NCBI RefSeq assembly: GCF_051903065.1
Contig: NZ_CP178438.1
DNA from: Escherichia coli
GTDB taxonomy: Bacteria; Pseudomonadota; Gammaproteobacteria; Enterobacterales; Enterobacteriaceae
Strand: one strand, 5' to 3'
Length of the DNA stretch: 64,000 bases
The notes beneath the pieces were generated by a model. The model did no database searches and had not been told where the DNA came from. It was given only the letters and a program-made list of their open reading frames with translations. Below are positions 9,730 to 26,483 of the stretch, piece after piece (within the stretch, counting starts at the first letter, position 1; each line of letters starts with the position of its first letter). The position numbers were made by a program, and so were the translations under genes.

Positions 9730-9784
9730 GGTGATGCTGCCAACTTACTGATTTAGTGTATGATGGTGTTTTTGAGGTGCTCCA

Positions 9785-10060: not shown

Positions 10061-10482
10061 CCTCGCGCATACAGCCGGGCAGTGACGTCATCGTCTGCGC
10101 GGAAATGGACGAACAGTGGGGCTATGTCGGGGCTAAATCGCGCCAGCGCTGGCTGTTTTACGCGTATGACAGGCTCCGGAAGACGGTTGTTGCGCACGTA
10201 TTCGGTGAACGCACTATGGCGACGCTGGGGCGTCTTATGAGCCTGCTGTCACCCTTTGACGTGGTGATATGGATGACGGATGGCTGGCCGCTGTATGAAT
10301 CCCGCCTGAAGGGAAAGCTGCACGTAATCAGCAAGCGATATACGCAGCGAATTGAGCGGCATAACCTGAATCTGAGGCAGCACCTGGCACGGCTGGGACG
10401 GAAGTCGCTGTCGTTCTCAAAATCGGTGGAGCTGCATGACAAAGTCATCGGGCATTATCTGAACATAAAACACTATCAATAA
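9979..10482 (+). CDS. insB: IS1 InsB frame (expressed as InsAB' transposase by -1 frameshift)
   Basis: 167-aa ORF overlapping insA 3' end in the -1 frame. Confidence 0.85.
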
Positions 10483-10497
10483 GTTGGAGTCATTACC

Positions 10498-10506
10498 GAG
10501 CAGGCA
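10498..10506. repeat. Right copy of 9-bp target-site duplication (GAGCAGGCA)
   Basis: Direct repeat of 9721-9729. Confidence 0.85.
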
Positions 10507-10865
10507 ATGGCCACCGTTTATCTAACAGTGGCCATTTGATTTGAGGAAATGATGAAACATTATTCAGAAAATTAATTTAAAAAAACCATTCCTTAAGTCA
10601 AATATATATAAACGCCGAATAGCGATTAAATCCTTCTCAAAGAATGCACTGATAACATTGTGTTATTTTTATTGCCTCATTTTTCTCACTCACTTATAGT
10701 TGGTCCCTGCTGGCAGTAATTTAGTCATTTCAGAGATTTTTACTCTGATGTGCACTTACTGACTTATCTCACAAGTAATTTTTTCTCTAAATAAAGAATA
10801 GTGATGCCAGCAATTACAGTTAAAACTTGCTTTACTCGTAAAAACAATACTTTAATGGGGTTCTA

Positions 10866-11255
10866 ATGAGACATTACATGAAATGGTTTGCGGCTATTGC
10901 TGTTGTGGGTGCTTTAGCGGGTTGCGCGCGTACTGCGCCAATTGATCAGGTTCACTCAACCGTCAGCGCTGGTCATACCCAGGAACAAGTGAAAAAAGCG
11001 ATTCTGAAAGCTGGCGTTGAACGCAAATGGATTATGTCCGAAGCCGGACAAGGCATAATTAAAGCACGTCAACAGTCACGCGATCATTCAGCGGAAATAC
11101 GCATTAACTACACGGCATCCAGCTACGATATCAATTATGAAAATAGCCAGAACCTTCAAGCGTCAGGCGGACAAATTCATAAAAACTACAATCGCTGGGT
11201 CCGCAATCTCGACAAAGATATTCAACTGAATTTGTCAGCGGGCGCAGATTTATAA
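10866..11255 (+). CDS. Putative lipoprotein, first gene of the biosynthetic island
   Basis: 129 aa with signal peptide and lipobox (VGALAGC); preceded by a 360-bp AT-rich leader. Confidence 0.6.
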   Translation: MRHYMKWFAAIAVVGALAGCARTAPIDQVHSTVSAGHTQEQVKKAILKAGVERKWIMSEAGQGIIKARQQSRDHSAEIRINYTASSYDINYENSQNLQASGGQIHKNYNRWVRNLDKDIQLNLSAGADL

Positions 11256-11314
11256 TTCCTCCTAAAGTCGGGCCGTTGCGGTCCGATAATAATTTAATTC
11301 CCTCTTAACAGGTT

Positions 11315-12382
11315 GTGCCCAACATGTACGAACAGGATTCTCTTAGCGCACTGGATGCGATTACCGAAGCTCAACGCATTGCCTTTGCCCCTATGCTTTT
11401 TCAAACAGCACTCTGCCTACGTAATGCGGGTGTACTTTCATATCTGGATCGGCAAGGCAAACATGGCGCAACGCTGGCTGATATCACCGAACATAGCCAT
11501 ATCAACGAATATGCTGCCAGCGTTCTGTTAGATATGGGCTTAAGCGGGCGAATTATTACCTGTAAAGAGGGAATTTATTACCTGGCGAAAATCGGTCATT
11601 ACCTCCTGCATGACACTATGACTCGCGTGAATATGGATTTCACCCAGGATGTCTGTTACCAGGGGCTCTTCTTCCTCGCCGATTCACTCAATGAAGGAAA
11701 ACCTTCCGGGTTAAAAGTATTTGGCGACTGGTCGACGATATATCCGGCACTTTCGCAATTACCAGACGCCGCTCGTGAAAGCTGGTTTGCGTTTGATCAT
11801 TACTATTCAGATGGCGCATTTAACGCCGCACTGCCTTATGTATTCGCCAACAACCCCACAACATTGTACGATGTAGGCGGCAATACGGGTAAGTGGGCTT
11901 TGCGTTGCTGCAAATACAATGAAAACATCGCCGTGACGTTATTAGATCTGCCACAACAAATCGTACTAGCGAAAGAAAATATCGCGAATGCAGGTTTTTC
12001 TGATCGCATAGATTTCCATGCGGTGGATATGCTAAGCGATGCCCCATTACCGGGCGAGGCTGATATCTGGTGGATGAGCCAATTTTTAGACTGTTTTTCA
12101 CCCGAACAAATAATTAGCATACTCAGCAAAATTGCCAGCGTAATGAAGCCTGGCGCAAAAGTTTGCATCATGGAGTTGTTCTGGGATGCGCAGCGGTTTG
12201 AAGCAGCATCGTTTAGCCTGAACGCGTCCTCACTTTATTTTACCTGCATGGCAAACGGTAACAGCCGTTTCTATAGTGCAGAGAAATTTTACGACTATCT
12301 GAATAAAGCAGGATTCCAGGTAGCAGAGCGCCACGATAATTTAGGCGTTGGGCATACACTTTTGATATGCCAAAAGAAATAA
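11315..12382 (+). CDS. Class I SAM-dependent methyltransferase (ApeB-like)
   Basis: 355 aa with glycine-rich SAM motif LYDVGGNTGKWAL; alternative ATG start at 11324. Confidence 0.8.
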   Translation: MPNMYEQDSLSALDAITEAQRIAFAPMLFQTALCLRNAGVLSYLDRQGKHGATLADITEHSHINEYAASVLLDMGLSGRIITCKEGIYYLAKIGHYLLHDTMTRVNMDFTQDVCYQGLFFLADSLNEGKPSGLKVFGDWSTIYPALSQLPDAARESWFAFDHYYSDGAFNAALPYVFANNPTTLYDVGGNTGKWALRCCKYNENIAVTLLDLPQQIVLAKENIANAGFSDRIDFHAVDMLSDAPLPGEADIWWMSQFLDCFSPEQIISILSKIASVMKPGAKVCIMELFWDAQRFEAASFSLNASSLYFTCMANGNSRFYSAEKFYDYLNKAGFQVAERHDNLGVGHTLLICQKK

Positions 12383-12422
12383 TCGTCACTTAATAATTTT
12401 GGTTTACCGCGGGCGCGCGTTG

Positions 12423-13145
12423 ATGAAATTTACATTAAATATTACCGACTGGCAGGCACTGGCGCCTGGACTTAGCGAAGCGCAGCAATGGCAAGCATGG
12501 TCGCGCCAGCCGTGGGCGATTGACCCTGCCGCGCCGTTGGCAAAATTAAGTGAACTGCCAATGATGACCGCCCGCCGCCTCAGTTCAGGCAGCAAACTGG
12601 CTGTTGAATGCGGTCTGGCAATGCTACGCCGCCATCAGCCAGACGCCGTTTTGTATACCAGTCGTCATGGCGAACTGGAGCGCAATTACCGCATTGTTCA
12701 TGCACTGGCAACCGAACAGGCGCTTTCTCCGACCGACTTCGCGCTCTCCGTACACAACTCTTCCGTGGGTAACCTGACCATTGCGGCCAAACAGCCGATC
12801 GTTTCGTCATCGCTTTCGGCTGGTCGCGACACTTTCCAGCAAGGTTTGTGTGAAGTGCTTAGCCTGTTACAAGCGGGATACCAGCGCGTGCTGATGGTCG
12901 ATTTTGACGGTTTCCTGCCCGAGTTTTATCACCCACAACTGCCATCAGAAATGCCGACCTGGCCGTACGCCGTCGCGCTGGTGATTGAAGCTGGCGATGA
13001 GTGGCAATGTGAAACGCAGTCAGCCATTGCGGGCAATGAAACAACACTGCCGCAAAGCATGTTGTTTTTACAGCACTATTTACAAAATGTAGACACATTT
13101 TCACTGCCTGGCGAGCGCGTGCAATGGCGCTGGAGCCACAGATGA
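12423..13145 (+). CDS. Ketosynthase N-terminal-domain-like protein, possible chain-length-factor partner (ApeC-like)
   Basis: About 240 aa, thiolase-like N-terminal half only; lacks the HGTAT and GHTLGA catalytic His motifs present in the two full ketosynthases of the island; start taken at ATG 12423. Confidence 0.6.
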   Translation: MKFTLNITDWQALAPGLSEAQQWQAWSRQPWAIDPAAPLAKLSELPMMTARRLSSGSKLAVECGLAMLRRHQPDAVLYTSRHGELERNYRIVHALATEQALSPTDFALSVHNSSVGNLTIAAKQPIVSSSLSAGRDTFQQGLCEVLSLLQAGYQRVLMVDFDGFLPEFYHPQLPSEMPTWPYAVALVIEAGDEWQCETQSAIAGNETTLPQSMLFLQHYLQNVDTFSLPGERVQWRWSHR

Positions 13146-13963
13146 GTAAGCTGATGTCACGTCTGGAGTGGACCTGGCGACTGGTCATGACCGGGTTATG
13201 TTTTGCCCTGTTTGGTCTCGGCGGCCTGCTGCTTTCTGTCGTGTGGTTTAACATATTGTTAGTTTTGGTGTGGGATACTTCCCGCCGCCGTCGTTTGGCG
13301 CGTCGCAGCATTGCCGCCAGTTTTCGCCTGTTTTTAACTGTCGCGAAAGGGCTTGGCGTGCTGGATTATCGTATTGATGGCGCTGAAATTTTACGTCAGG
13401 AACGCGGTTGCCTCGTCGTAGCCAATCATCCCACGCTGATCGATTACGTGCTGCTGGCGTCAGTCATGCCAGAAACTGACTGCCTGGTGAAAAGCGCACT
13501 GTTAAAAAATCCTTTTCTTGGCGGCGTCGTGCGGGCGGCAGATTATTTAATCAACAGCGAAGCTGAAACCCTGTTACCCCGCTGCCAACAGCGACTGGCA
13601 CAGGGTGACACTATCCTGATTTTCCCCGAAGGCACACGAACGAAGCCCGGTGAAAAAATGACGCTGCAGCGCGGGGCGGCGAATATTGCCGTGCGCTGCG
13701 CCAGCGATTTACGCATCGTGACAATCGGCTGTAGCGAGCATCTGCTGGATAAACAAAGTAAATGGTATGACGTTCCACCTGACCGGCCGTTTTTTACGGT
13801 TGCAGTCCATGGTCGGGTTGAAATCAATAAATTTTACGATGCAACTTCACAAGAACCGGCGCTGGCAGCAAGGCAGTTAAACCGGCATCTTTTGCTTCAA
13901 TTACAACAAGGTTGTTTACCTCTCTCAGGAATAAATAATGCAAGCGCTTTATCTGGAAATTAA
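13142..13963 (+). CDS. Lysophospholipid (PlsC-type) acyltransferase (ApeD-like)
   Basis: HX4D motif (NHPTLID) and FPEGTRT motif; N-terminal TM helix; ATG overlaps upstream stop (ATGA). Confidence 0.8.
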   Translation: MSKLMSRLEWTWRLVMTGLCFALFGLGGLLLSVVWFNILLVLVWDTSRRRRLARRSIAASFRLFLTVAKGLGVLDYRIDGAEILRQERGCLVVANHPTLIDYVLLASVMPETDCLVKSALLKNPFLGGVVRAADYLINSEAETLLPRCQQRLAQGDTILIFPEGTRTKPGEKMTLQRGAANIAVRCASDLRIVTIGCSEHLLDKQSKWYDVPPDRPFFTVAVHGRVEINKFYDATSQEPALAARQLNRHLLLQLQQGCLPLSGINNASALSGN

Positions 13964-14195
13964 AAACCTCATCATCAGCACCCTCAATCTGGACGAGTTG
14001 ACGCCTGATGATATCGATACCGACGCGCCGCTGTTTGGCGACGGTTTAGGGCTGGACTCTATCGATGCCCTGGAACTGGGACTGGCAGTAAAAAATGAGT
14101 ACGGCATCGTGCTCTCTGCGGAAAGCGAAGAGATGCGTCAGCACTTTTTCTCCGTCGCCACTCTGGCCTCTTTCATTGCTGCGCAACGTGCCTGA
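13938..14195 (+). CDS. Acyl carrier protein 1
   Basis: 85 aa with phosphopantetheine-attachment motif LGLDSIDALEL. Confidence 0.8.
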   Translation: MQALYLEIKNLIISTLNLDELTPDDIDTDAPLFGDGLGLDSIDALELGLAVKNEYGIVLSAESEEMRQHFFSVATLASFIAAQRA

Positions 14196-14206
14196 GGAAA
14201 GCCATC

Positions 14207-14458
14207 ATGACAGAACAACAAACCGTCTATCAGGAAGTCTCAGCCCTGCTGGTTAAGCTGTTTGAAATCGATCCGCAGGACATCAAACCTGAAGCGCGCC
14301 TGTACGAAGATCTGGAACTGGACAGCATCGACGCCGTTGACATGATTGTGCACCTGCAAAAGAAAACCGGTAAGAAAATCAAGCCGGAAGAGTTTAAAGC
14401 AGTGCGTACAGTCCAGGATGTCGTCGAGGCTGTAGAACGCCTGCTACAAGAAGCCTGA
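14207..14458 (+). CDS. Acyl carrier protein 2
   Basis: 83 aa with LELDSIDAVDM; GAGGAAAG Shine-Dalgarno. Confidence 0.85.
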   Translation: MTEQQTVYQEVSALLVKLFEIDPQDIKPEARLYEDLELDSIDAVDMIVHLQKKTGKKIKPEEFKAVRTVQDVVEAVERLLQEA

Positions 14459-14462
14459 TCTG

Positions 14463-15044
14463 ATGTCGGGCATTCGCTCGCTACCGATGATTAAGCTGCT
14501 GACTGGATTATTGCTGCTCGCCTGGCCGTTTGTGATTTGGTTTGGCTTAGCGCATAACGGCCTGCACTGGCTGTTACCGCTAATGGCGTTGCTGCTTTTG
14601 TTGCGTCTGCGCCAGACCCGTCGCCAGGCGGGGCCTTTACAAGCCGTCACGCAACTCGTCGCTGTCGTGGGCATCGCATTATGTGTCGCCAGCTTTATGT
14701 TGAAAACGCACCAGCTACTGCTGTTTTACCCGGTAGTGGTTAACGCGGTCATGCTGGCGGTTTTTGGCGGTTCGCTGTGGTCGGCAATGCCGATAGTTGA
14801 GCGGCTGGCGCGGTTGCAGGAGCCAGACCTCCCGGAAAAGGGCGTGCGCTATACCCGCCACGTCACGCAAATCTGGTGCGGCTTTTTCATCATTAACGGT
14901 GGAATTGCCCTCTTTACCGCGCTTTATGCCGATATGTCGTTATGGACCGCCTGGAACGGCATGATTGCTTATTTGTTGATGGGGACGTTAATGGCTGGTG
15001 AATGGCTGGTGCGCCGCCAGGTTATGAAAAGAGATCGCGCATGA
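14463..15044 (+). CDS. Integral membrane protein (ApeG-like)
   Basis: 193 aa, several predicted TM helices. Confidence 0.7.
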   Translation: MSGIRSLPMIKLLTGLLLLAWPFVIWFGLAHNGLHWLLPLMALLLLLRLRQTRRQAGPLQAVTQLVAVVGIALCVASFMLKTHQLLLFYPVVVNAVMLAVFGGSLWSAMPIVERLARLQEPDLPEKGVRYTRHVTQIWCGFFIINGGIALFTALYADMSLWTAWNGMIAYLLMGTLMAGEWLVRRQVMKRDRA

Positions 15045-16402
15045 AGCAGACCTTACCGCTTGCACGCTGGCTGACTGCGCCACGCCCTGATGACACACCC
15101 ATTGCGTGGCTGAACGAAAGTACCTGGACGCTGGGCGATTTGCGTCACGATGTCGCGCAACTTATCTGCCGCTTGCAGCAACAGCCGGGTGAACGCTGGG
15201 CGCTGTGCTTTGAGAACAGCTATCTGTTTATCGTTGCCCTGCTCGCCACGCTACACGCCGGAAAAACGCCGGTGCTTCCGGGGCATAACCGTGTTATCCA
15301 GCTTAACGAGCAACGTGAACTTTTTGATGGTGTGCTTAGCGACAGCGAACTTAACTGGCAAGGTTCATTGCTGTTGGTAGCAAGTTCCCCACAAGTCGCG
15401 ACACAATCCTTCACCTTTGCCGCTATAGCGCCAGAGGCTTATATCGAGCTGTTTACCTCCGGTTCCACGGGACAGCCGAAACGGGTGATTAAACCTGTTC
15501 ATTTGCTGGACCGTGAAGCAGAACTGCTGGCTGAACGATTAGGCGCACGTCTGGCGGATTGTCGTGTCATCGGTTCCGTATTGCCGCAGCATTTGTACGG
15601 CCTGACTTTTCGCGTTTTCCTGCCCATGGCGCTGGGATTACCCCTACATGCCGCCATGCTCTGGTATGTCGAACAGTTTGCCGCGTTGAGTCATCAGCAT
15701 CGCTATATCTTCATCAGCAGCCCGGCATTTTTGAAGCGTCTGGATACACAGCTTTCCCCACCGCCCGTTCAGGTGCTTCTCTCTGCTGGCGGTGAGCTAC
15801 CGTGGCAGGATGTACAACACACCGCGAGCTGGCTGCGCGTCTGGCCTGATGAAATCTACGGCAGCACGGAAACCGGCGTCATCGCCTGGCGCTACCGCGA
15901 ACAAGAGCAACGCCGCTGGCTACCCCTCCCAGGTATGCAGTTCCAGGCCGAAGGCGATGCCTTTCGCCTCTTTTCACCGCTGATAGCGGAAGATAACGGC
16001 CTGTTACTCGACGATATCTTACAGTTTAGCGAAGATGGTCAGTTCCATCTGATGGGGCGTCGTGGGCGCATCGTTAAGATTGAAGAAAAACGTATTTCAC
16101 TCCAGGAAGTAGAACAACGTCTACTGGCGCTGGACGGCATTCGCGAGGCGGCGGCAGTTCCCGTTACGCGCGGCGGGCGTCAGAGCATAGGCGTTTTGCT
16201 GGTGCTGGATGACGAAGCTCATCTGCAATGGCAGAACGGCGGCGGGCATAGCCAGGAAATGACCTGGCGGCGTTTACTGCGCCCGACGCTGGAGCCAGTT
16301 GCTATTCCGCGTTACTGGCGCGTTATTGATGAAATGCCAGTAAACAGTATGAACAAGCGTGTCTATGCGCAATTACAGGAGTTATTTCATGAAGCCCCAT
16401 GA
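15041..16402 (+). CDS. AMP-dependent acyl/aryl-CoA or -ACP ligase (adenylation enzyme, ApeH-like)
   Basis: AMP-binding motif FTSGSTGQPKRV; ATG overlaps upstream stop. Confidence 0.85.
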   Translation: MKQTLPLARWLTAPRPDDTPIAWLNESTWTLGDLRHDVAQLICRLQQQPGERWALCFENSYLFIVALLATLHAGKTPVLPGHNRVIQLNEQRELFDGVLSDSELNWQGSLLLVASSPQVATQSFTFAAIAPEAYIELFTSGSTGQPKRVIKPVHLLDREAELLAERLGARLADCRVIGSVLPQHLYGLTFRVFLPMALGLPLHAAMLWYVEQFAALSHQHRYIFISSPAFLKRLDTQLSPPPVQVLLSAGGELPWQDVQHTASWLRVWPDEIYGSTETGVIAWRYREQEQRRWLPLPGMQFQAEGDAFRLFSPLIAEDNGLLLDDILQFSEDGQFHLMGRRGRIVKIEEKRISLQEVEQRLLALDGIREAAAVPVTRGGRQSIGVLLVLDDEAHLQWQNGGGHSQEMTWRRLLRPTLEPVAIPRYWRVIDEMPVNSMNKRVYAQLQELFHEAP

Positions 16403-16742
16403 AATCGAGCGCCATCAGGCACAAACGAATCACCTTGAAATTGTTCTGCATCTCAGGGCGGATCTGTTCTGGTTTCGCGGTCATTTTGCCGTGCAACCAT
16501 TACTCCCAGGAGTTGCGCAAATCGATTGGGCGATGAGCTACGCGCTCAATCTGCTCGCGCCTGGCTGGCGTTTTCACTCCATTCAGAACATAAAATTCCA
16601 GTCTCCGTTGCTGCCGGAAAACCGCGTCACGCTCGCGCTTAACTGGCAGGAAGAACGCCAGATTCTGAGCTTTAGCTATCAGCGTCACGACGGTGACGCC
16701 CGCCACACCGCCAGTAGCGGGAAGATACGCCTATGTCGGTAA
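16389..16742 (+). CDS. Hotdog-fold dehydratase (FabA/FabZ-like)
   Basis: FRGHFAVQPLLPG catalytic-His motif. Confidence 0.75.
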   Translation: MKPHEIERHQAQTNHLEIVLHLRADLFWFRGHFAVQPLLPGVAQIDWAMSYALNLLAPGWRFHSIQNIKFQSPLLPENRVTLALNWQEERQILSFSYQRHDGDARHTASSGKIRLCR

Positions 16743-18409
16743 ACTTTTCTCCCTGCGTGTTGATCCCCTGCTACAACCACGGCGCGATGATGCCGGGCGT
16801 GCTGGCGCGTCTTAAGCCATTTAATCTGCCCTGTATTGTGGTGGACGACGGCAGCGATGCCGCCACGCAACAGCAACTGGACAGTCTGCTTGCCGAACAG
16901 CCTGGCGTGACCTTAATCCGCCTGGCAGAAAACGCAGGCAAAGGCGCGGCAGTGATGCGTGGCTTACAGGCAGCGGCAGACGCAGGGTTCAGCCATGCGG
17001 TGCAGGTGGATGCTGACGGTCAACATGCGATTGAAGATATCCCCAAACTGCTGGCACTCGCTGAACAACACCCTGCGGCGCTGATCTCCGGCCAGCCAAT
17101 TTACGATGACTCCATCCCCCGCTCACGGCTTTACGGGCGCTGGGTCACCCACGTCTGGGTATGGATCGAAACGCTCTCCCTGCAACTGAAAGACAGCATG
17201 TGCGGCTTTCGCGTTTATCCGGTTGCGCCAACGCTGCAACTGGCAAAACACGCCACCATCGGCAAGCGGATGGATTTCGACACTGAAGTGATGGTGCGCC
17301 TCTACTGGCAGGGAAACACCAGCTATTTCGTGCCGACCCGCGTCACCTATCCACTGGACGGGCTTTCGCATTTTGATGCCCTGAAAGATAACGTCCGCAT
17401 CTCGCTCATGCACACGCGTCTGTTTTTCGGCATGTTGCCGCGTATTCCTTCACTACTGATGCGCCGCTCTTCCAGCCACTGGGCGCGGCAGAGTGAAGTG
17501 AAAGGATTATGGGGAATGCGCCTGATGCTGCTGGTCTGGCGTCTGCTGGGAAGAACGGCGTTTAGCGCGCTGCTTTACCCGGTGGTGGGCGTCTACTGGC
17601 TCACTGCTGCTCGTGCGCGCAAAGCGTCGCAAGACTGGCTCGCCCGTGTACGACAGCATCAACCACAGGCGGCAAAACTCAACAGCTATCAGCACTTTCT
17701 ACGTTTCGGTAATGCCATGCTCGACAAAATCGCCAGCTGGCGCGGCGAGCTACAACTGGGGCACGATGTGCTGTTTGCGCCAGGCGCAGAAGCGGCGCTT
17801 GACGTCAGCGATCCGCGCGGCAAATTGCTGCTGGCCTCGCATCTTGGCGATGTGGAAGTGTGCCGGGCGCTGGCAAAAATTCAGGGCTACAAAACCATTA
17901 ACGCGCTGGTGTTTAGCGAAAACGCCCAACGCTTTAAACAGATAATGCAGGAGATGGCTCCTCAGGCAGGTATTAACCTGATGCCGGTAACAGATATCGG
18001 CCCGGAAACCGCCATCCTGCTGAAAGAGAAGCTGGATAACGGCGAATGGGTGGCGATTGTCGGTGACCGCATCGCCGTCACCCCGCAACGCGGCGGCGAC
18101 TGGCGCGTCTGCTGGAGTCCGTTTATGGGCCAGCCTGCGCCCTTCCCACAGGGGCCGTTTATTCTCGCGTCTATTTTGCGCTGCCCGGTGAATCTGATTT
18201 TCGCCCTGCGCCAGCGCGGCAAGCTGCATATTCACTGCGAAACCTTTGCCGACCCGCTGCTGTTGCCGCGTGGCGAACGCCAACAGGCGCTGCAAAACGC
18301 TATCGACCACTACGCCGCGCGTCTGGAACATTACGCGCTCCAGTCGCCCCTCGACTGGTTTAATTTTTTCGATTTCTGGCAACTGCCGGAAATTCAGGAC
18401 AAGGAGTAA
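16733..18409 (+). CDS. Two-domain glycosyltransferase family 2 / LpxL-type lipid acyltransferase fusion (ApeJ-like)
   Basis: N-terminus VVDDGSDAATQ and VDADGQH (GT2 DXD); C-terminal half resembles lauroyl/myristoyl acyltransferases. Confidence 0.8.
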   Translation: MSVNFSPCVLIPCYNHGAMMPGVLARLKPFNLPCIVVDDGSDAATQQQLDSLLAEQPGVTLIRLAENAGKGAAVMRGLQAAADAGFSHAVQVDADGQHAIEDIPKLLALAEQHPAALISGQPIYDDSIPRSRLYGRWVTHVWVWIETLSLQLKDSMCGFRVYPVAPTLQLAKHATIGKRMDFDTEVMVRLYWQGNTSYFVPTRVTYPLDGLSHFDALKDNVRISLMHTRLFFGMLPRIPSLLMRRSSSHWARQSEVKGLWGMRLMLLVWRLLGRTAFSALLYPVVGVYWLTAARARKASQDWLARVRQHQPQAAKLNSYQHFLRFGNAMLDKIASWRGELQLGHDVLFAPGAEAALDVSDPRGKLLLASHLGDVEVCRALAKIQGYKTINALVFSENAQRFKQIMQEMAPQAGINLMPVTDIGPETAILLKEKLDNGEWVAIVGDRIAVTPQRGGDWRVCWSPFMGQPAPFPQGPFILASILRCPVNLIFALRQRGKLHIHCETFADPLLLPRGERQQALQNAIDHYAARLEHYALQSPLDWFNFFDFWQLPEIQDKE

Positions 18410-18412
18410 AGG

Positions 18413-18835
18413 GTGCTTAACGATCCCCGATTTACCGCTGAAGTCGAGCTGACCATTCCCTTTCACGACGTCGATATGATGGGCGTGGCCTGGCACGGTA
18501 ACTATTTTCGCTACTTTGAAGTGGCCCGCGAGGCGCTGCTCAACCAGTTCAATTACGGCTATCGGCAGATGAAAGAGTCCGGTTATTTGTGGCCAGTGGT
18601 CGATGCGCGGGTGAAATATCGCCACGCTCTCACCTTTGAGCAACGCATCCGCGTGCGTGCGCATATCGAAGAGTTCGAAAACCGTCTGCGGATTGGCTAT
18701 CAGATTTTCGATGCCGAAACGGGCAAACGCGCCACCACCGGATACACCATTCAGGTCGCGGTCGACGAGCAAAGCCGCGAACTGTGCTTTGTCAGCCCCG
18801 ATATTCTGTTTGAACGCATGGGAGTCAAACCATGA
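18413..18835 (+). CDS. 4HBT/YbgC-type acyl thioesterase
   Basis: GTG start 7 nt after AAGGAG; HDVDMMGVAWHGNYFRYFE hotdog thioesterase signature. Confidence 0.8.
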   Translation: MLNDPRFTAEVELTIPFHDVDMMGVAWHGNYFRYFEVAREALLNQFNYGYRQMKESGYLWPVVDARVKYRHALTFEQRIRVRAHIEEFENRLRIGYQIFDAETGKRATTGYTIQVAVDEQSRELCFVSPDILFERMGVKP

Positions 18836-19437
18836 AATTTTTACCGCTGCTGGCGCTGCTGATTAGCCCGTTTGTGAGCGCCCTGACCCTGGACGATCTT
18901 CAACAACGTTTTACCGAACAGCCGGTGATCCGCGCCCATTTCGATCAAACCCGGACGATTAAAGATCTGCCGCAGCCGCTGCGATCTCAGGGCCAGATGT
19001 TGATCGCCCGCGACCAGGGGTTATTGTGGGATCAAACCTCACCGTTCCCCATGCAACTATTACTGGACGATAAACGCATGGTGCAGGTGATCAACGGTCA
19101 GCCGCCGCAAATCATCACGGCAGAAAATAACCCGCAGATGTTCCAGTTTAACCACCTGCTGCGCGCGCTGTTCCAGGCCGATCGCAAAGTGCTGGAACAA
19201 AACTTCCGCGTCGAATTTGCCGACAAAGGCGAAGGCCGCTGGACGCTGCGCCTGATGCCGACCACCACGCCACTGGATAAAATTTTCAACACCATCGATC
19301 TCGCCGGGCAAACCTATCTGGAGAGCATTCAGCTTAATGATAAACAGGGCGATCGCACCGATATTGCTCTTACCCAACATCAACTGACACCAGCGCAACT
19401 GACCGATGACGAACGCCAACGTTTTGCCGCCCAGTAA
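18832..19437 (+). CDS. LolA-like outer-membrane lipoprotein carrier protein
   Basis: 201 aa with signal peptide; size and position between thioesterase and MMPL transporter as in APE clusters. Confidence 0.7.
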   Translation: MKFLPLLALLISPFVSALTLDDLQQRFTEQPVIRAHFDQTRTIKDLPQPLRSQGQMLIARDQGLLWDQTSPFPMQLLLDDKRMVQVINGQPPQIITAENNPQMFQFNHLLRALFQADRKVLEQNFRVEFADKGEGRWTLRLMPTTTPLDKIFNTIDLAGQTYLESIQLNDKQGDRTDIALTQHQLTPAQLTDDERQRFAAQ

Positions 19438-21724
19438 ACGCCCCGCGCTGTTATGGGGGCTAGTCTGCCTGGTCATGGCGGCGGCGTTGCTGATCCTGCT
19501 GCCGCAATCACGGCTGAACAGTAGCGTGCTGGCTATGTTACCCAAACAGGCGATGGGCGATATTCCCCCAGCGCTGAATGACGGCTTTATGCAGCGTCTG
19601 GACCGCCAACTGGTGTGGCTGGTCAGCCCCGGTAAAGAGGCTAATCCCAGGGTCGCTCAGGAGTGGCTGACGCAGCTGCAAAAATCCGCTGCGCTTGGCG
19701 ACATTAAAGGGCCAATGGATGCCGCCAGCCAGCAGGCGTGGGGAGCGTTTTTCTGGCAGCACCGCAACGGCCTGATTGACCACGACACCCGCGCCCGCCT
19801 GCAAAACGGCGGCGAAGCGCAGGCGCAGTGGATCCTCTCCCAGCTTTATTCTGCATTCTCCGGGGTAAGCGGCAAGGAGCTGCAAAACGATCCGCTGATG
19901 TTAATGCGCGGCTCGCAGCTGGCGATGGCAAAAAATGGCCAGCGTTTGCGGCTGATGGACGGCTGGCTGGTGACGCAGGATCCCCAGGGCAACTACTGGT
20001 ATCTGCTGCACGGCGAACTGGCGGGATCGTCGTTTGATATGCAGCAAACCCACCAGCTCATCACGACCCTGAATACGCTGGAAAAGGATCTGAAAACGCG
20101 TTACCCACAGGCGCAGTTGCTCTCGCGCGGCACGGTATTTTACAGCGATTACGCCAGTCAACAGGCGAAGCAGGATATCTCAACCCTGGGCGTGGCAACG
20201 CTGCTGGGGGTGATATTGCTGATTGTGGCGGTGTTCCGCTCTTTGCGCCCGTTGCTGCTTTGCGTGATTTCCATCGGCATCGGCGCGCTGGCGGGAACGG
20301 TCGCCACTTTATTGATTTTCGGTGAATTACACCTGATGACGCTGGTGATGAGCATGAGCGTTATCGGCATTTCCGCTGACTACACGCTCTATTATCTCAC
20401 CGAGCGGATGGTTCACGGCAACGACGTTTCGCCGTGGCAAAGCCTGGCGAAAGTACGCAATGCCTTGCTACTGGCGCTGCTCACCACCGTGGCGGCGTAT
20501 CTGATTATGATGCTCGCCCCCTTCCCCGGCATTCGCCAGATGGCGATTTTTGCCGCCGTCGGGTTGAGCGCCTCCTGTCTGACCGTCCTGTTCTGGCATC
20601 CGTGGCTGTGCCGTGGCCTGCCGGTGCGTCCGGTTCCGGCGATGGCGCTGATGCTACGCTGGCTGGCAGCGTGGCGGCGTAATAAAAAACTGTCGCTGGG
20701 TCTGCCCGTCGCGCTGGCGCTGTTTTCGCTGGCGGGGATGTCAATGCTACGCGTCGATGACGATATCTCGCAGTTACAGGCGCTACCGCAGCATATTCTG
20801 GCGCAGGAAAAAGCCATTACCGCCCTGACCAGGCAGAGCGTCGATCAAAAATGGTTTGTGGTTTACGGCGATTCGCCACAGCAAACATTGCGGCGACTGG
20901 AGAAATATACCGCCTCACTTGAGTATGCGAAAAAAGAGGGGCTTATCAGCAACTACCGCACCATTCCGCTGAACTCCCTTGCGCGGCAGGAGGAAGATTT
21001 ACAACTGCTGAAAACGGCGGCCCCGACAGTAACAAAAGCGCTGCAAAATGCCGGGCTGACGGCAGTGAACCCGGATCTCAACGCCATGCCAGTGAACGTT
21101 GATGAATGGCTGGCAAGCCCCGCCAGTGAAGGCTGGCGTCTGCTGTGGCTGACGCTGGAAAACGGCGAAAGCGGCGTACTGGTGCCGGTTGAAGGGGTTA
21201 AAAGTAGCGCGTTGATGCAGGAAATCGCCAGCTATTACCCTTGCGGCATTGCCTGGGTTGATCGCAAAAGCACCTTTGATGAATTGTTCGCACTTTACCG
21301 TTATGTCTTAACCGGCTTGTTGCTGGTGGCGCTGGCGGTGATTGCCTGCGGCGCAGTGGCCCGTCTCGGCTGGCGCAAAGGGCTTATCAGCCTGGTGCCT
21401 TCGGTGCTTTCGCTGGGCTGCGGTCTGGCGGTGCTGGCGATGAGCGGGCAGGCGGTGAATATCTTTTCGCTTCTGGCGCTGGTGCTGGTGCTTGGCATCG
21501 GCATCAATTACACGCTGTTTTTCAGTAATCCGCGCGGCACACCGTTAACTTCGCTACTGGCGATCACACTGGCAATGCTCACCACCTTGCTGACGCTGGG
21601 AATGTTGGTATTCAGCGCCACCCAGGCCATCAGCAGTTTTGGCATTGTGCTGGTGAGCGGTATTTTCACCGCCTTCCTGCTTTCGCCGCTGGCTATGCCC
21701 GATAAAAAGAGAACAAAAAAATGA
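19406..21724 (+). CDS. MMPL/RND-superfamily exporter
   Basis: 772 aa with two clusters of TM helices separated by soluble loops. Confidence 0.8.
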   Translation: MTNANVLPPSKRPALLWGLVCLVMAAALLILLPQSRLNSSVLAMLPKQAMGDIPPALNDGFMQRLDRQLVWLVSPGKEANPRVAQEWLTQLQKSAALGDIKGPMDAASQQAWGAFFWQHRNGLIDHDTRARLQNGGEAQAQWILSQLYSAFSGVSGKELQNDPLMLMRGSQLAMAKNGQRLRLMDGWLVTQDPQGNYWYLLHGELAGSSFDMQQTHQLITTLNTLEKDLKTRYPQAQLLSRGTVFYSDYASQQAKQDISTLGVATLLGVILLIVAVFRSLRPLLLCVISIGIGALAGTVATLLIFGELHLMTLVMSMSVIGISADYTLYYLTERMVHGNDVSPWQSLAKVRNALLLALLTTVAAYLIMMLAPFPGIRQMAIFAAVGLSASCLTVLFWHPWLCRGLPVRPVPAMALMLRWLAAWRRNKKLSLGLPVALALFSLAGMSMLRVDDDISQLQALPQHILAQEKAITALTRQSVDQKWFVVYGDSPQQTLRRLEKYTASLEYAKKEGLISNYRTIPLNSLARQEEDLQLLKTAAPTVTKALQNAGLTAVNPDLNAMPVNVDEWLASPASEGWRLLWLTLENGESGVLVPVEGVKSSALMQEIASYYPCGIAWVDRKSTFDELFALYRYVLTGLLLVALAVIACGAVARLGWRKGLISLVPSVLSLGCGLAVLAMSGQAVNIFSLLALVLVLGIGINYTLFFSNPRGTPLTSLLAITLAMLTTLLTLGMLVFSATQAISSFGIVLVSGIFTAFLLSPLAMPDKKRTKK

Positions 21725-22305
21725 TCAAATCCACATTCTGGCGAGCGTTCGCCCTGACCGCTACGCTTATCCTCACCGGCTGTAGCCACTCGCAACCAGA
21801 ACAGGAAGGCCGCCCGCAGGCGTGGCTGCAACCTGGCACGCGCATCACGCTGCCGGCACCAGGGATTTCACCCGCAGTCAATTCGCAGCAACTGTTGACC
21901 GGCAGCTTCAACGGCAAAACCCAGTCGCTGCTAGTAATGCTTAACGCCGACGACCAGAAAATCACCCTTGCCGGGCTGTCGTCGGTCGGCATTCGCCTGT
22001 TTCTGGTGACCTACGATGCAAAAGGGCTACGCGCCGAGCAATCCATCGTCGTCCCGCAGTTGCCGCCCGCAAGTCAGGTGCTGGCTGACGTAATGCTCAG
22101 CCACTGGCCGATTAGCGCCTGGCAACCGCAACTTCCCGCAGGATGGACACTTCGCGACAACGGTGACAAACGCGAGCTGCGTAACGCCAGCGGCAAACTG
22201 GTCACGGAAATCACCTATCTGAATCGCCAGGGAAAACGCGTGCCAATCAGCATTGAGCAGCATGTCTTTAAATACCACATCACCATTCAATACTTAGGTG
22301 ACTGA
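21721..22305 (+). CDS. Lipoprotein (DUF3261-like)
   Basis: Lipobox LTGCSHS; ATGA overlap with upstream gene. Confidence 0.65.
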   Translation: MIKSTFWRAFALTATLILTGCSHSQPEQEGRPQAWLQPGTRITLPAPGISPAVNSQQLLTGSFNGKTQSLLVMLNADDQKITLAGLSSVGIRLFLVTYDAKGLRAEQSIVVPQLPPASQVLADVMLSHWPISAWQPQLPAGWTLRDNGDKRELRNASGKLVTEITYLNRQGKRVPISIEQHVFKYHITIQYLGD

Positions 22306-22306
22306 T

Positions 22307-23476
22307 ATGATTTATATTTCCGCCGTCGGCATGATCAACGCCCTGGGAAATAACCTTGACGAAATCGCAGCCAACCTGGCTCGCGGTGTCGCCCCCGGAA
22401 TGCGCCCACGCGCAGGCTGGTTGCAGGGGCATCCGCAGGCGGTCCTGGCTGGCGTGGATGGCGAGCTTCCGCTTATCCCGGAAAAATTCGCTGCGCATCG
22501 CTCGCGCAACAATCAGATCCTGCTGGCGGCGCTGGCGCAGCTCCAGCCGCAGGTTGATGACACTATAGCGAAATATGGTCGCGAGCGCATCGCGATTGTA
22601 CTTGGCACCAGCACCTCCGGCCTGCATGAAGGCGACACGCACGTTAACCTGCGCACCCACGGGCAGCCGAGCACCACATGGCATTACGCGCAACAGGAAC
22701 TCGGCGATCCGTCGCGTTTTCTCAGCCACTGGCTGGCGCTCGACGGCCCGGCTTATACCCTTTCAACCGCCTGCTCCTCCAGCGCCAGAGCGATGATCAG
22801 CGGGCGCAGGCTTATCGAGGCGGGGCTGGTCGATGCCGCCATTGTGGGTGGCGCAGACACCCTGAGCCGGATGCCGATTAACGGTTTTCACAGCCTCGAA
22901 TCGCTGTCGCCAACCTTATGTCAGCCGTTCGGTCGTGACCGCGCAGGTATCACCATTGGTGAAGGGGCGGGGCTAATGCTGCTGACCCGCGAACCGCAGC
23001 CCATCGCATTGCTGGGCGTTGGTGAATCGAGCGACGCTTACCATATTTCAGCTCCGCATCCGCAGGGCGAAGGAGCGATCCGCGCTATTAATCAGGCGCT
23101 GACCGATGCGCAGCTTACGCCGGATGACGTCGGCTATATCAACCTGCACGGCACCGCCACACAGCTCAACGACCAGATTGAATCAATGGTGGTTAACGCC
23201 CTGTTTGGCGAACGCGTACCGTGCAGCTCCACCAAACATTTGACCGGACACACGCTGGGCGCAGCGGGCATTACCGAGGCGGCAATTAGTATGTTGATTT
23301 TACAGCGTGATTTACCGCTGCCCGCTCAGGACTTCAGCCTGTCGCCGCGCGATCCCACGCTGCCACCGTGTGGCATTATCGAAAAACCGCAGCCGCTGGC
23401 ACGTCCGGTGATCCTGTCCAATTCCTTCGCCTTTGGCGGCAATAACGCCAGCATTCTGCTCGGGAGGGTTTCGTGA
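22307..23476 (+). CDS. Beta-ketoacyl-ACP synthase (ApeO-like)
   Basis: Cys-His-His triad motifs LSTACSSS, LHGTATQ, GHTLGAAG. Confidence 0.85.
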   Translation: MIYISAVGMINALGNNLDEIAANLARGVAPGMRPRAGWLQGHPQAVLAGVDGELPLIPEKFAAHRSRNNQILLAALAQLQPQVDDTIAKYGRERIAIVLGTSTSGLHEGDTHVNLRTHGQPSTTWHYAQQELGDPSRFLSHWLALDGPAYTLSTACSSSARAMISGRRLIEAGLVDAAIVGGADTLSRMPINGFHSLESLSPTLCQPFGRDRAGITIGEGAGLMLLTREPQPIALLGVGESSDAYHISAPHPQGEGAIRAINQALTDAQLTPDDVGYINLHGTATQLNDQIESMVVNALFGERVPCSSTKHLTGHTLGAAGITEAAISMLILQRDLPLPAQDFSLSPRDPTLPPCGIIEKPQPLARPVILSNSFAFGGNNASILLGRVS

Positions 23477-23937
23477 GCCACTATTTATCCCCCGGTGCTT
23501 ATCTGCCCCACGACGCGCCCATGTTACTGCTGGAAGACGTGGTGAGCGTCAGCGATGACAGCGCGGTGTGCCGCGTGACGGTTTCGCCCAGTGGCGTACT
23601 GGCACCGTTTCTCGACCCGGACGGCAATCTCCCCGGCTGGTTTACCCTTGAACTGATGGCGCAAACCGTCGGCGTCTGGTCTGGCTGGCATCGCCACCAG
23701 CAGGGCAAAAACAGTATTGAGTTAGGGATGATACTGGGCGCGCGTGAATTGCTTTGCACCACTGGCATTCTGCCCGCAGGCCAGACGCTGACCATTACCG
23801 TCAAACTGCTGATGCAAGACGATCGCTTCGGCAGTTTTGAGTGCAGCATCAACGACGGCGAGGCAACGGGCCGCATTAACACCTTCCAGCCGACCGCGGA
23901 AGAACTTACCACCCTGTTTCAACAAGGAGCGTCCTGA
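23473..23937 (+). CDS. Hotdog-fold dehydratase (FabA-like)
   Basis: 154-aa hotdog-sized ORF; GTGA overlap with upstream ketosynthase. Confidence 0.7.
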   Translation: MSHYLSPGAYLPHDAPMLLLEDVVSVSDDSAVCRVTVSPSGVLAPFLDPDGNLPGWFTLELMAQTVGVWSGWHRHQQGKNSIELGMILGARELLCTTGILPAGQTLTITVKLLMQDDRFGSFECSINDGEATGRINTFQPTAEELTTLFQQGAS

Positions 23938-24668
23938 TGAGTCGTTCAGTTCTGGTTACTGGTGCCAGCAAAGGCATTGGTCGCGCCATCGCCTGCCAAC
24001 TGGCGGCAGACGGCTTTAACATTGGCGTTCACTATCACCGTGACGCCACAGGCGCTCAGGAAACGCTGAATGCCATTGTCGCCAATGGGGGTAACGGGCG
24101 TTTGCTCAGTTTCGACGTCGCAAACCGCGAACAGTGTCGGGAAGTGCTGGAGCATGAGATCGCGCAACACGGTGCCTGGTACGGCGTGGTCAGTAACGCC
24201 GGGATCGCCCGCGATGCCGCTTTTCCGGCTTTAAGCGATGACGACTGGGATGCGGTGATCCACACCAACCTCGACAGTTTCTACAACGTCATTCAGCCGT
24301 GCATTATGCCGATGATCGGCGCACGCCAGGGTGGGCGCATCATCACGCTATCCTCGGTTTCCGGCGTAATGGGCAATCGCGGCCAGGTGAATTACAGCGC
24401 TGCCAAAGCCGGAATTATCGGCGCAACAAAAGCGCTGGCTATCGAACTCGCGAAGCGCAAAATCACCGTCAACTGCATCGCGCCGGGGCTTATTGATACC
24501 GGGATGATCGAAATGGAAGAGAGCGCTCTGAAAGAGGCAATGTCGATGATCCCCATGAAACGTATGGGCCAGGCGGAAGAAGTTGCCGGGCTTGCCAGTT
24601 ATTTAATGTCTGATATTGCGGGTTACGTCACCCGCCAAGTTATTTCCATCAACGGAGGGATGTTATGA
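23937..24668 (+). CDS. 3-oxoacyl-ACP reductase (FabG-like SDR)
   Basis: TGASKGIGRAIA Rossmann motif, catalytic YSAAK. Confidence 0.9.
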   Translation: MSRSVLVTGASKGIGRAIACQLAADGFNIGVHYHRDATGAQETLNAIVANGGNGRLLSFDVANREQCREVLEHEIAQHGAWYGVVSNAGIARDAAFPALSDDDWDAVIHTNLDSFYNVIQPCIMPMIGARQGGRIITLSSVSGVMGNRGQVNYSAAKAGIIGATKALAIELAKRKITVNCIAPGLIDTGMIEMEESALKEAMSMIPMKRMGQAEEVAGLASYLMSDIAGYVTRQVISINGGML

Positions 24669-25894
24669 CACGTCGCGTAGTGATTACAGGAATGGGCGGC
24701 GTGACTGCCTTTGGTGAAAACTGGCAGGACGTTTCTGCACGCTTACTGGCGTATGAAAATGCGGTGCGCAAAATGCCGGAGTGGCAGGTCTACGACGGGC
24801 TGCACACCCTGCTTGGCGCGCCTGTTGATGATTTCACGCTACCGGAGCACTACACCCGCAAGCGTATCCGTGCGATGGGCCGCGTGTCGCAAATGTCGAC
24901 CCGTGCCAGCGAGCTGGCGTTAGAGCAGGCAGGGTTGATTGGCGATCCGATATTAACCAGCGGCGAAACGGGCATTGCGTACGGTTCATCGACCGGCAGT
25001 ACCGGCCCGGTAAGCGAGTTCGCCACCATGCTGACGGAAAAGCACACCAATAACATCACTGGCACCACCTATGTGCAGATGATGCCGCACACCACCGCCG
25101 TTAATACTGGCCTCTTTTTCGGCCTGCGCGGGCGGGTGATCCCAACCTCCAGCGCCTGTACTTCCGGCAGCCAGGCAATCGGTTATGCGTGGGAAGCCAT
25201 TCGCCACGGTTATCAAACGGTGATGGTTGCTGGTGGTGCCGAAGAGTTATGTCCTTCAGAAGCAGCGGTATTTGATACGCTTTTCGCCACCAGCCAGCAC
25301 AATGATGCGCCGAAAACCACACCTTCACCGTTCGATGAAAACCGCGACGGGCTGGTGATTGGTGAAGGCGCAGGTACGCTCATTCTCGAAGAACTGGAAC
25401 ACGCCAAAGCGCGCGGCGCGACCATTTACGGTGAAATCGTCGGCTTTGCGACGAACTGCGACGCGGCACATATTACCCAGCCGCAGCGCGAAACCATGCA
25501 GTATTGTATGGAGCAATCGCTGAAAATCGCCGGGTTAAGCGCACAAGATATCGGCTATATTTCAGCGCATGGTACGGCGACCGATCGCGGTGATATGGCA
25601 GAAAGTCTGGCGACAGCAACCATTTACGGTGATAATGTGCCGCTCTCCTCGCTGAAAAGTTATTTTGGTCATACGCTTGGTGCCTGTGGCGCGCTCGAAG
25701 CCTGGATGAGTCTGCAAATGATGCGCGAAGGTTGGTTTGCGCCTACGCTAAACCTGAATAAACCAGACCCGAATTGTGGCGCGCTGGATTACATCATGCA
25801 TGAAGCCCGCAAGGTTGATTGTGAGTTTTTACAGAGTAACAACTTTGCCTTTGGCGGCATTAATACATCCATCATCATTAAACGTTGGCCCTGA
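24665..25894 (+). CDS. Beta-ketoacyl-ACP synthase I/II-like (ApeR-like)
   Basis: SSACTSGS, AHGTATDRGD, GHTLGACGA. Confidence 0.9.
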   Translation: MTRRVVITGMGGVTAFGENWQDVSARLLAYENAVRKMPEWQVYDGLHTLLGAPVDDFTLPEHYTRKRIRAMGRVSQMSTRASELALEQAGLIGDPILTSGETGIAYGSSTGSTGPVSEFATMLTEKHTNNITGTTYVQMMPHTTAVNTGLFFGLRGRVIPTSSACTSGSQAIGYAWEAIRHGYQTVMVAGGAEELCPSEAAVFDTLFATSQHNDAPKTTPSPFDENRDGLVIGEGAGTLILEELEHAKARGATIYGEIVGFATNCDAAHITQPQRETMQYCMEQSLKIAGLSAQDIGYISAHGTATDRGDMAESLATATIYGDNVPLSSLKSYFGHTLGACGALEAWMSLQMMREGWFAPTLNLNKPDPNCGALDYIMHEARKVDCEFLQSNNFAFGGINTSIIIKRWP

Positions 25895-25895
25895 T

Positions 25896-26483
25896 ATGTA
25901 TCGGATAGTTCTGGGGAAAGTTTCGACCTTAAGCGCAGCTCCACTGCCACCGGGTTTACGCGAGCAAGCACCGCAAGGTCCACGACGCGAACGCTGGCTG
26001 GCGGGGCGTGCATTGCTTTCGCACACGCTTTCCCCGCTACCGGAGATCATCTATGGCGAACAAGGCAAACCTGCATTTGCGCCGGAAACGCCGCTATGGT
26101 TCAACTTAAGCCATAGCGGTGACGATATCGCCCTGCTGTTGAGTGATGAAGGCGAAGTCGGCTGCGATATCGAAGTGATTCGCCCGCGCGCCAACTGGCG
26201 CTGGCTGGCGAACGCCGTGTTCAGCCTCGGGGAACACGCTGAAATGGACGCCGTGCATCCTGATCAGCAACTGGAAATGTTCTGGCGCATCTGGACGCGC
26301 AAAGAAGCCATCGTTAAACAGCGTGGCGGCAGCGCCTGGCAAATCGTCAGCGTAGACAGCACCTATCACTCCTCGCTGTCAGTCAGCCATTGTCAGCTAG
26401 AAAATTTAAGCCTTGCGATCTGCACCCCCACCCCCTTTACGCTCACCGCCGACAGTGTGCAATGGATCGATTCAGTTAACTGA
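25896..26483 (+). CDS. acpT: 4'-phosphopantetheinyl transferase AcpT
   Basis: Starts MYRIVLGKVSTL 1 nt after the upstream ketosynthase stop; PPTase motifs. Confidence 0.9.
   Translation: MYRIVLGKVSTLSAAPLPPGLREQAPQGPRRERWLAGRALLSHTLSPLPEIIYGEQGKPAFAPETPLWFNLSHSGDDIALLLSDEGEVGCDIEVIRPRANWRWLANAVFSLGEHAEMDAVHPDQQLEMFWRIWTRKEAIVKQRGGSAWQIVSVDSTYHSSLSVSHCQLENLSLAICTPTPFTLTADSVQWIDSVN

Follow-up and report, generated by a model that had tools for sequence, protein, structure and literature searches.

Gene content and layout of the island

The 64,000-nucleotide (nt) stretch of Escherichia coli DNA analyzed here (contig NZ_CP178438.1 of assembly GCF_051903065.1; hereafter the window) carries, between the genes yhhT and acpT, an island of 18 consecutive plus-strand open-reading frames (ORF) spanning positions 10866-25894. 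We conclude with high confidence that this island is the canonical aryl polyene (APE) cluster of E. coli, apeA-apeR, in its yhhT-acpT chromosomal version. The evidence for this assignment is at the level of sequence: which genes are present, in what order and how intact they are, their motifs and orthology, and where on the chromosome they lie. An initial annotation, made from the sequence alone, had described the island as APE-like; the APE assignment stands and is refined here to the canonical cluster.

The number, strand and extent of the ORFs given in the initial annotation agree with both the program-made ORF list of the window and the public annotation of E. coli 23CRST027, the chromosome of which is 100% identical to the window and shows the same 18 genes. 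The start codons used here are the annotated ones, some of which define shorter genes than the mechanically called ORFs (apeA at 10878, apeB at 11324, apeC at 12423, apeD at 13142, apeH at 15041, apeI at 16389 and apeO at 22307). With these starts, the genes of the island are the following:

10878..11255, plus strand: apeA, lipoprotein with lipobox LAGC; alternative start at 10866
11324..12382, plus strand: apeB, S-adenosylmethionine (SAM)-dependent methyltransferase with motif DVGGNTG
12423..13145, plus strand: apeC, chain length factor, ketosynthase-like, predicted partner of ApeO
13142..13963, plus strand: apeD, PlsC-type lysophospholipid acyltransferase with motif HPTLID (HX4D)
13938..14195, plus strand: apeE, acyl carrier protein (ACP) with serine motif DSID, predicted to carry the aryl polyene chain
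14207..14458, plus strand: apeF, second ACP, also with DSID
14463..15044, plus strand: apeG, COG4648 integral membrane protein, as named by the Prokaryotic Genome Annotation Pipeline (PGAP)
15041..16402, plus strand: apeH, adenylate-forming acyl-ACP synthetase predicted to activate 4-hydroxybenzoate, with motifs SGSTGQPK and YGSTE
16389..16742, plus strand: apeI, hotdog dehydratase, predicted partner of ApeP
16733..18409, plus strand: apeJ, GT2 domain fused to a PatA/LpxM/LpxL-family acyltransferase
18413..18835, plus strand: apeK, 4HBT/YbgC-type thioesterase
18832..19437, plus strand: apeL, LolA-like carrier with signal peptide
19406..21724, plus strand: apeM, MMPL/RND-superfamily exporter
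21721..22305, plus strand: apeN, DUF3261 lipoprotein with lipobox LTGC
22307..23476, plus strand: apeO, elongating ketosynthase with an intact Cys-His-His triad
23473..23937, plus strand: apeP, hotdog dehydratase
23937..24668, plus strand: apeQ, FabG2 3-ketoacyl-ACP reductase with a YxxxK motif
24665..25894, plus strand: apeR, initiating ketosynthase with a Cys-His-His triad

The longest spacers are those between apeA and apeB (68 nt) and between apeB and apeC (40 nt). All remaining junctions lie within -32 to +11 nt, and seven of them consist of an overlap of 4 nt or, once, of 1 nt, so the earlier description of genes mostly overlapping or separated by 0-4 nt is about right. The island is preceded by yhhT (8660-9709) and followed by acpT (25896-26483) and then nikABCDE-nikR. 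Its G+C content, roughly 0.42-0.46 over apeA and apeB, rises to 0.55-0.60 across the remaining genes, a profile that is consistent with acquired DNA.

Every gene function named in the initial annotation was recovered with NCBIfam, Pfam and profile searches, together with the motifs it had singled out (HX4D in ApeD, DSID in both ACPs, SGSTGQPK in ApeH and Cys-His-His in two ketosynthases), and the frames of all 18 genes are intact, with all catalytic motifs present. NCBIfam cut-offs were exceeded by ApeE (NF006617, 90.8 bits against 70), ApeF (NF003757, 146 against 65), ApeO (NF006618, 554 against 407), ApeQ (TIGR01831, 476 against 339) and ApeR (NF006587, 778 against 470). Pfam families were matched by ApeC (Ketoacyl-synt_2, 3e-65), ApeD (Acyltransferase, 2.5e-18; also NCBIfam AGP_acyltrn), ApeK (4HBT_2, 1e-14; also by NCBIfam), ApeL (LolA and LolA_3), ApeN (DUF3261, 2e-37) and, over their full length, ApeI (ApeI-like PF22818, 1e-37) and ApeP (ApeP-like PF22817, 6e-39). 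Other NCBIfam matches stay below the cut-off of the model: ApeB to the FlxJ-family methyltransferase (474 bits against 560), ApeL to lolA and LolA2_flexi, and ApeM, named an MMPL family transporter by PGAP, to HAE3 and HpnN-like models. The best NCBIfam match of ApeH, among adenylate-forming families, is 4-coumarate-CoA ligase (1e-24). ApeA and ApeG match no family in NCBIfam or Pfam, and the roles suggested for them below are taken from the literature. None of the island ORFs resembles an ammonia-lyase or a chorismate lyase, in line with the initial observation that the island contains no starter-unit enzyme.

Taken by module, these genes make up a type II (dissociated) polyketide synthase (PKS): ApeO carries the catalytic triad, ApeC does not, and two free-standing ACPs carry DSID. 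The protein first described as ketosynthase-N-domain-like is indeed ketosynthase-like and can be refined to the chain length factor ApeC, the name given to it by PGAP; a motif scan found it to be free of the Cys-His-His triad, as a chain length factor should be. The heterocomplex of ketosynthase and chain length factor is known here from the literature (PMC8253772, citing Grammbitter 2019). The core set used for calling ape clusters, comprising two ketosynthases, two ACPs, a chain length factor, two dehydratases, a ketoreductase and a transporter (bioRxiv 10.1101/2020.12.19.423268), is fully present and intact (apeO, R, E, F, C, I, P, Q and M). The attachment and export module is likewise complete, with a PlsC-type acyltransferase, a GT2-acyltransferase fusion, a thioesterase, and LolA-like, DUF3261 and COG4648 proteins, and the island encodes the adenylating enzyme (ApeH) and the putative head-group methyltransferase (ApeB) that are expected of the APE family.

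The GT2/LpxL fusion proposed for ApeJ called for more sensitive methods. Its N-terminal half matches GT2 in Pfam as a single sequence; its C-terminal half, searched in the same way, returned no match in Pfam, in the PDB (phmmer) or to K-12 LpxL (BLASTP). Among representative proteins ApeJ has more than 1000 relatives at E-values up to 1e-30, many of the same two-domain length, and a profile built from 91 homologues was compared with the PDB. The N-terminal half of this profile matched dolichol-phosphate mannose synthase (5e-17), GtrB (2e-13) and ArnC (1e-11), and the C-terminal half matched LpxM (5KN7; 1.2e-9) and PatA (1.7e-4). An AlphaFold model with a mean predicted local distance difference test (pLDDT) score of 94 retrieved GtrB, ArnC, PatA (template modelling (TM) score 0.69) and LpxM (2e-9) with Foldseek, and H370 (motif HLGDVE) and G372 are invariant in the homologue alignment. 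Profile and fold comparison thus bear out the fusion. With the profile matching dolichol-phosphate mannose synthase and both approaches matching GtrB and ArnC, the N-terminal domain is assigned, on profile and model, to the class of enzymes that transfer sugars to lipid phosphates. For the C-terminal half, the resemblance to PatA, LpxM and LpxL is predicted at the family level only and provides no evidence for action on lipid A. The best-scoring NCBIfam model for ApeJ is a polyprenyl-phospho-GalNAc (N-acetylgalactosamine) synthase, at 53.5 bits and thus far under its cut-off of 370; this match fits the published APE lipid, which contains a GalNAc-phosphate linkage and for which ApeJ has been proposed to transfer GalNAc first and subsequently to acylate this sugar with the chromophore itself (bioRxiv 10.1101/2020.12.19.423268).

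Two further searches returned little within the island. A scan of the whole window with Rfam gave zero matches there, and six antisense ORFs (one of 340 amino acids on the minus strand at 17750-18772, inside apeJ/apeK, and five others) were rejected as genes. They have no NCBIfam match at E-values up to 0.1, are unannotated in the identical genome and are probably a by-product of high G+C content.

Relatives of the island

In the cluster of E. coli CFT073 (c1204-c1186), all 18 genes recur in unchanged order and orientation, with matching predicted functions and similar overlaps (Table 1 of PMC8253772), so that the match to the APE family put forward initially extends to an identical gene content and order. 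This 15.5-kb cluster, cited as MIBiG entry BGC0000836 (PMC9205054), is enough for a K-12 host to make the aryl polyene APE_Ec, and most deletions of its core genes abolish the pigment (PMC8253772). Like the island in the window, it contains neither a starter-unit enzyme nor a regulator. The two differ in location: the CFT073 copy lies at approximately 1.15 Mb, away from acpT, with a haemagglutinin pseudogene on one side and garD/aga-type pseudogenes on the other. The phosphopantetheinyl transferase gene acpT, which abuts apeR in the window, must therefore act in CFT073 from elsewhere in the genome.

At the DNA level, the CFT073 cluster is 94.5% identical over 92% of the island (megablast). Among the 18 proteins, 14 are 94-100% identical, including ApeB (94%), ApeC (94%), ApeD (97%), ApeK (100%), ApeM (96%), ApeO (99%), ApeP (98.7%) and ApeR (99.8%), and the other four are 64-81% identical: ApeA (64%; annotated at 129 amino acids in CFT073), ApeG (81%), ApeH (66%, the most diverged enzyme) and ApeI (72%). 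This divergence is concentrated in two sharp-edged blocks, inside which identity to CFT073 is about 68%, against 96.9% outside them. The first block runs from 10866 to approximately 11560 and covers apeA and the 5′ end of apeB; the second runs from approximately 14850 to approximately 16700 and covers the 3′ end of apeG, apeH and apeI, with a G+C content of 0.553 here against 0.49 in CFT073.

The island is the same as O-island 138 of O157:H7 (S-loop 225 of strain Sakai, ECs_4324-ECs_4341), in agreement with the link to an O157:H7 island drawn in the initial annotation. Comparison over 16.1 kb including the flanks covers 100% of the island at 98.5% DNA identity, and the site, between yhhT and acpT, is shared. 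ApeA, ApeE, ApeI, ApeK, ApeP, ApeQ and ApeR are 100% identical to their O157:H7 counterparts, ApeG is 99.5% identical, and the divergent apeG-apeH-apeI allele is shared; against O157:H7 ATCC 43890, the two carrier proteins show 100% and 98.8% identity. The differences amount to an IS1 element between yhhT and the island, present in the window and lacking in the O157:H7 genomes examined, and small allelic differences (e.g. ApeC at 95%). The cluster has thus already been described both at the yhhT-acpT locus and in a close paralogous lineage, and a pangenome study using antiSMASH has called Sakai ECs_4324-ECs_4341 an APE cluster (PMC9205054). In O157:H7 ATCC 43890, apeD is annotated as frameshifted (L004:4777-5597). 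A frameshift general to O157:H7 was considered and rejected: apeD is intact in 7.1_Anguil and in O55:H7 DEC5B, as it is in the window, and the lesion is therefore strain-specific.

In a K-12-type genome the island is absent and acpT starts 54 nt after yhhT, confirming the direct succession of the two genes stated initially. The similarity to Ape proteins is strong and K-12-type genomes are devoid of the island, and the initial interpretation of the locus therefore stands. Among the complete E. coli genomes compared (5426), 820 contain 80% or more of the island, always on the chromosome. O157:H7, O55:H7 and O145 strains carry it at 98.4-98.5% identity over 100% of its length, and in the O157:H7 and O55:H7 strains examined, as well as in the human blood isolate MS14387 (96.8%), it is located between yhhT and acpT. 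A few genomes hold two ape copies; in one of these, 33F4, one copy is at yhhT-acpT.

The yhhT-acpT junction is unsplit in 4856 of the 5426 genomes. Subtracting these from the 5425 genomes with a match leaves 569 with a split junction, and 569 is also the number of genomes that carry the second block at 90% identity or more; another 256 carry it at 60-80% identity (the CFT073, Nissle 1917 and ATCC 25922 type). CFT073 and ETEC-2264 carry their ape copy elsewhere, and the junction of ETEC-2264 is empty. In view of the equal counts and of these displaced copies, allele type and chromosomal site appear to be coupled, and two deep APE lineages of E. coli appear, from sequence comparison, to coincide with two chromosomal sites. 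The strain analyzed here thus joins the roughly 10% of E. coli with the cluster at yhhT-acpT, a group that includes O157:H7, O55:H7, O145 and MS14387. The mosaic should be mildly useful to specialists: E. coli APE chemistry all derives from the CFT073 lineage, and the commoner yhhT-acpT lineage has a strongly diverged and uncharacterised starter-activating enzyme, ApeH.

Beyond E. coli, the ape cluster of Xenorhabdus doucetiae, likened to the island by description and from a different genus, has apeB-R in common with it, along with the roles proposed for these genes. The assignments for loading by ApeH, initiation by ApeR, elongation by ApeO:ApeC and attachment by ApeD and ApeJ come from this cluster (Grammbitter et al. 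2019). The chromophores of X. doucetiae and CFT073 are identical, a 4-hydroxy-3-methylphenyl hexaene, and the full structure of an APE lipid is known only for X. doucetiae (bioRxiv 10.1101/2020.12.19.423268). The clusters for flexirubin and xanthomonadin encode related enzymes of the type II PKS and fatty acid synthase (FAS)-like kind, and the flexirubin models FlxJ, FlxB and LolA2_flexi match ApeB, ApeQ and ApeL. Membership in either class was rejected. Every flexirubin model scores below its cut-off (DarB 22 of 550, FlxJ 474 of 560, FlxB 266 of 340 and LolA2_flexi 55 of 125 bits), and the island, unlike flexirubin clusters, has no dialkylresorcinol genes (darA/darB) and no halogenase.

Predicted pathway and flanking regions

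The pathway outlined here derives from work on CFT073 and X. doucetiae, and each biochemical step, as well as expression in this strain, is assigned by orthology. AcpT would phosphopantetheinylate ApeE and ApeF; the AcpT protein of O157:H7 is reported to activate the homologues of both, which are the carrier proteins of the O157:H7 island (De Lay and Cronan 2006, as cited in PMC8253772). The starter, 4-hydroxybenzoate, is supplied by UbiC from ubiquinone synthesis (PMC8253772) and would be adenylated by ApeH and loaded directly on ApeE. The first condensation would be carried out by ApeR, to which the initiating role is attributed in PMC8253772 (citing Grammbitter 2019), and elongation with malonyl units by the pair of ketosynthase and chain length factor, ApeO:ApeC. 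In each round, reduction by ApeQ and dehydration by ApeI/ApeP would follow, leading to a conjugated hexaene carboxylic acid with a 4-hydroxyphenyl head, and ApeB would methylate this aryl head group, the function described for it in PMC8253772 and bioRxiv 10.1101/2020.12.19.423268.

ApeK, ApeD and ApeJ are then expected to release the chromophore and join it to a glycerophospholipid-type anchor. In X. doucetiae the anchor is GalNAc-phosphate-glycerol with a second conjugated acyl chain (bioRxiv 10.1101/2020.12.19.423268), which is probably built on ApeF. Transport of the lipid to the outer membrane would involve ApeM, ApeG, ApeL, ApeN, which the literature describes as LolB-like, and perhaps ApeA. 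A membrane-anchored, methylated product exported by a LolA-like/RND pair, as proposed initially, agrees with the published model (PMC8253772; bioRxiv 10.1101/2020.12.19.423268). In the outer membrane, the APE lipid would constitute a yellow antioxidant pigment that promotes biofilm formation, both protection from reactive oxygen species and biofilm being reported effects of APE lipids (PMC8253772; bioRxiv 10.1101/2020.12.19.423268; 10.64898/2026.01.21.700819). More generally, APE lipids protect Gram-negative bacteria from oxidative stress and promote their biofilms, and the gene cluster family that makes them is among the most widespread in bacteria.

Three features at the edges of the island may bear on its expression:

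9730..10497, plus strand: IS1A, from the annotation of the identical genome and IS1 matches; context, outside the cluster
10507..10877, plus strand: non-coding leader of about 370 nt, G+C 0.42-0.46
25896..26483, plus strand: acpT, 4′-phosphopantetheinyl transferase (NCBIfam NF007676, 396 bits against a cut-off of 174)

IS1A lies 12 nt past the stop codon of yhhT. Its ends can be read directly, as can the 9-bp target duplication, GAGCAGGCA, which is perfect on both of its sides (9721-9729 and 10498-10506). The element is absent from this locus in the O157:H7, O55:H7, MS14387 and 33F4 copies examined. From position 10500 onwards the sequence is 98.5% identical to that of O157:H7, and the leader is otherwise the same. 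This leader starts with a hairpin and a T-run (approximately 10510-10545) that is terminator-like for yhhT, followed by an AT-rich stretch which presumably holds the ape promoter. A sigma-70-like match at 10672-10700 is a consensus match only. Promoter and terminator scans carry little weight here, since their counts are near the shuffled expectation (14 matches against 10.6, and 29 against 20.3). The terminator scan found no convincing internal terminator in the island and no terminator-like site between apeR and acpT. As acpT begins 1 nt past the apeR stop codon, its position suggests that in the yhhT-acpT lineage it is probably the last, 19th gene of the ape operon and co-transcribed with it.

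Alternative explanations and other features of the window

Several observations weigh against the reading of the island as the canonical APE cluster. The papers cited here report no product for the yhhT-acpT lineage; the cluster has no regulator; IS1 lies approximately 380 nt upstream of apeA, where it may affect transcription; and under laboratory conditions the expression of related clusters is weak or absent (bioRxiv 10.1101/2020.12.19.423268; 10.64898/2026.01.21.700819). Identity to CFT073 is moreover only 66% for ApeH, 72% for ApeI, 81% for ApeG and 64% for ApeA, and because of these low values the extension of starter and product identity with APE_Ec to the steps of these four proteins is an extrapolation.

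The last point can be turned into an alternative explanation, according to which the replacement of apeA and of the apeG-apeH-apeI module has given the island a different chemotype, with another aromatic starter, chain or anchor than APE_Ec. Such a change is suggested by the sharp edges of the two blocks, at about 68% identity in an island otherwise 96.9% identical to CFT073, by the inclusion in the second block of the starter-activating ApeH, with its 66% protein identity, by the depth and discreteness of the allele classes (569 genomes at 90% or more, 256 at 60-80%) and by the shift in G+C content of that block (0.553 against 0.49). The adenylation core motifs of ApeH are nevertheless conserved, the ApeH of X. 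doucetiae, which is part of a far more distant cluster, still uses 4-hydroxybenzoate (bioRxiv 10.1101/2020.12.19.423268), and the determinants of chain length remain 99% (ApeO) and 94% (ApeC) identical to those of CFT073. Since the chromophores of X. doucetiae and CFT073 are identical, product identity tolerates much divergence, and by this analogy a product change through the diverged ApeH is unlikely; overall we regard a distinct chemotype as improbable. Were the module to set the starter or an early processing step, the pigment lipid of the O157:H7 type would differ chemically from APE_Ec, so far the sole characterised APE of E. coli, a consequence to which we assign the same low probability.

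A more radical departure, in which the island would make a non-aromatic lipid and not an aryl polyene, can draw on the fact that most of its enzymes match FAS-type families (FabF-like, FabG2 and FabZ-like), and the X. doucetiae cluster does yield a non-aromatic conjugated C26:5 acyl chain in addition to its chromophore, which makes a polyunsaturated fatty acyl group part of its output (bioRxiv 10.1101/2020.12.19.423268). We consider it very improbable in the face of an island that is orthologous to and collinear with a proven aryl polyene cluster (PMC8253772), that encodes an O/C-methyltransferase of aromatic type, belonging to the FlxJ family of flexirubin clusters, that has full-length matches to the ApeI- and ApeP-specific Pfam families, and the ApeH of which, a dedicated adenylating enzyme of the aryl-acid type, finds its best NCBIfam matches in 4-coumarate, benzoate and 3-hydroxybenzoate ligases. 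Of the three alternatives considered, the one to which we grant most room, while still deeming it unlikely, concerns not the product but its expression: the cluster, though intact, would be cryptic or in decay in this strain, silenced through the missing regulator or the upstream IS1, and would add nothing to the phenotype. The insertion of IS1 between yhhT and the island is in keeping with it, as are the silence of the X. doucetiae cluster in the laboratory and the modest induction of that of CFT073, under chronic oxidative stress (bioRxiv 10.1101/2020.12.19.423268; 10.64898/2026.01.21.700819), and the frameshifted apeD of O157:H7 ATCC 43890 indicates that decay occurs. In the window, however, none of the 18 reading frames is disrupted and no catalytic motif is lost. 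The 370-nt leader lies entirely downstream of IS1 and otherwise matches that of O157:H7, and contact with host cells and plant roots reportedly induces the O157:H7 ape genes (10.64898/2026.01.21.700819; PMC9205054). The identification of the island as the canonical APE cluster, at its yhhT-acpT location, remains the reading that we favor.

The remainder of the window contains several features of separate interest. Between nikR and yhhJ, on the minus strand (32037-32668), the annotation of the identical genome places a HicA/HicB type II toxin-antitoxin pair, and between arsC and slp (57931-59047) it shows a frameshifted hypothetical pseudogene. The type I toxin gene dinQ (54577-54660, minus strand) adjoins a match to the AgrB antisense RNA in Rfam (54935-55018; 107.7 bits). 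Finally, the haem uptake genes chuA and chuS are found at 61788-63799 on the minus strand, and the RNA thermometer of the shuA/chuA 5′ untranslated region (Rfam RF02597) is matched at 63768-63799 with 60.1 bits against a gathering score of 58.

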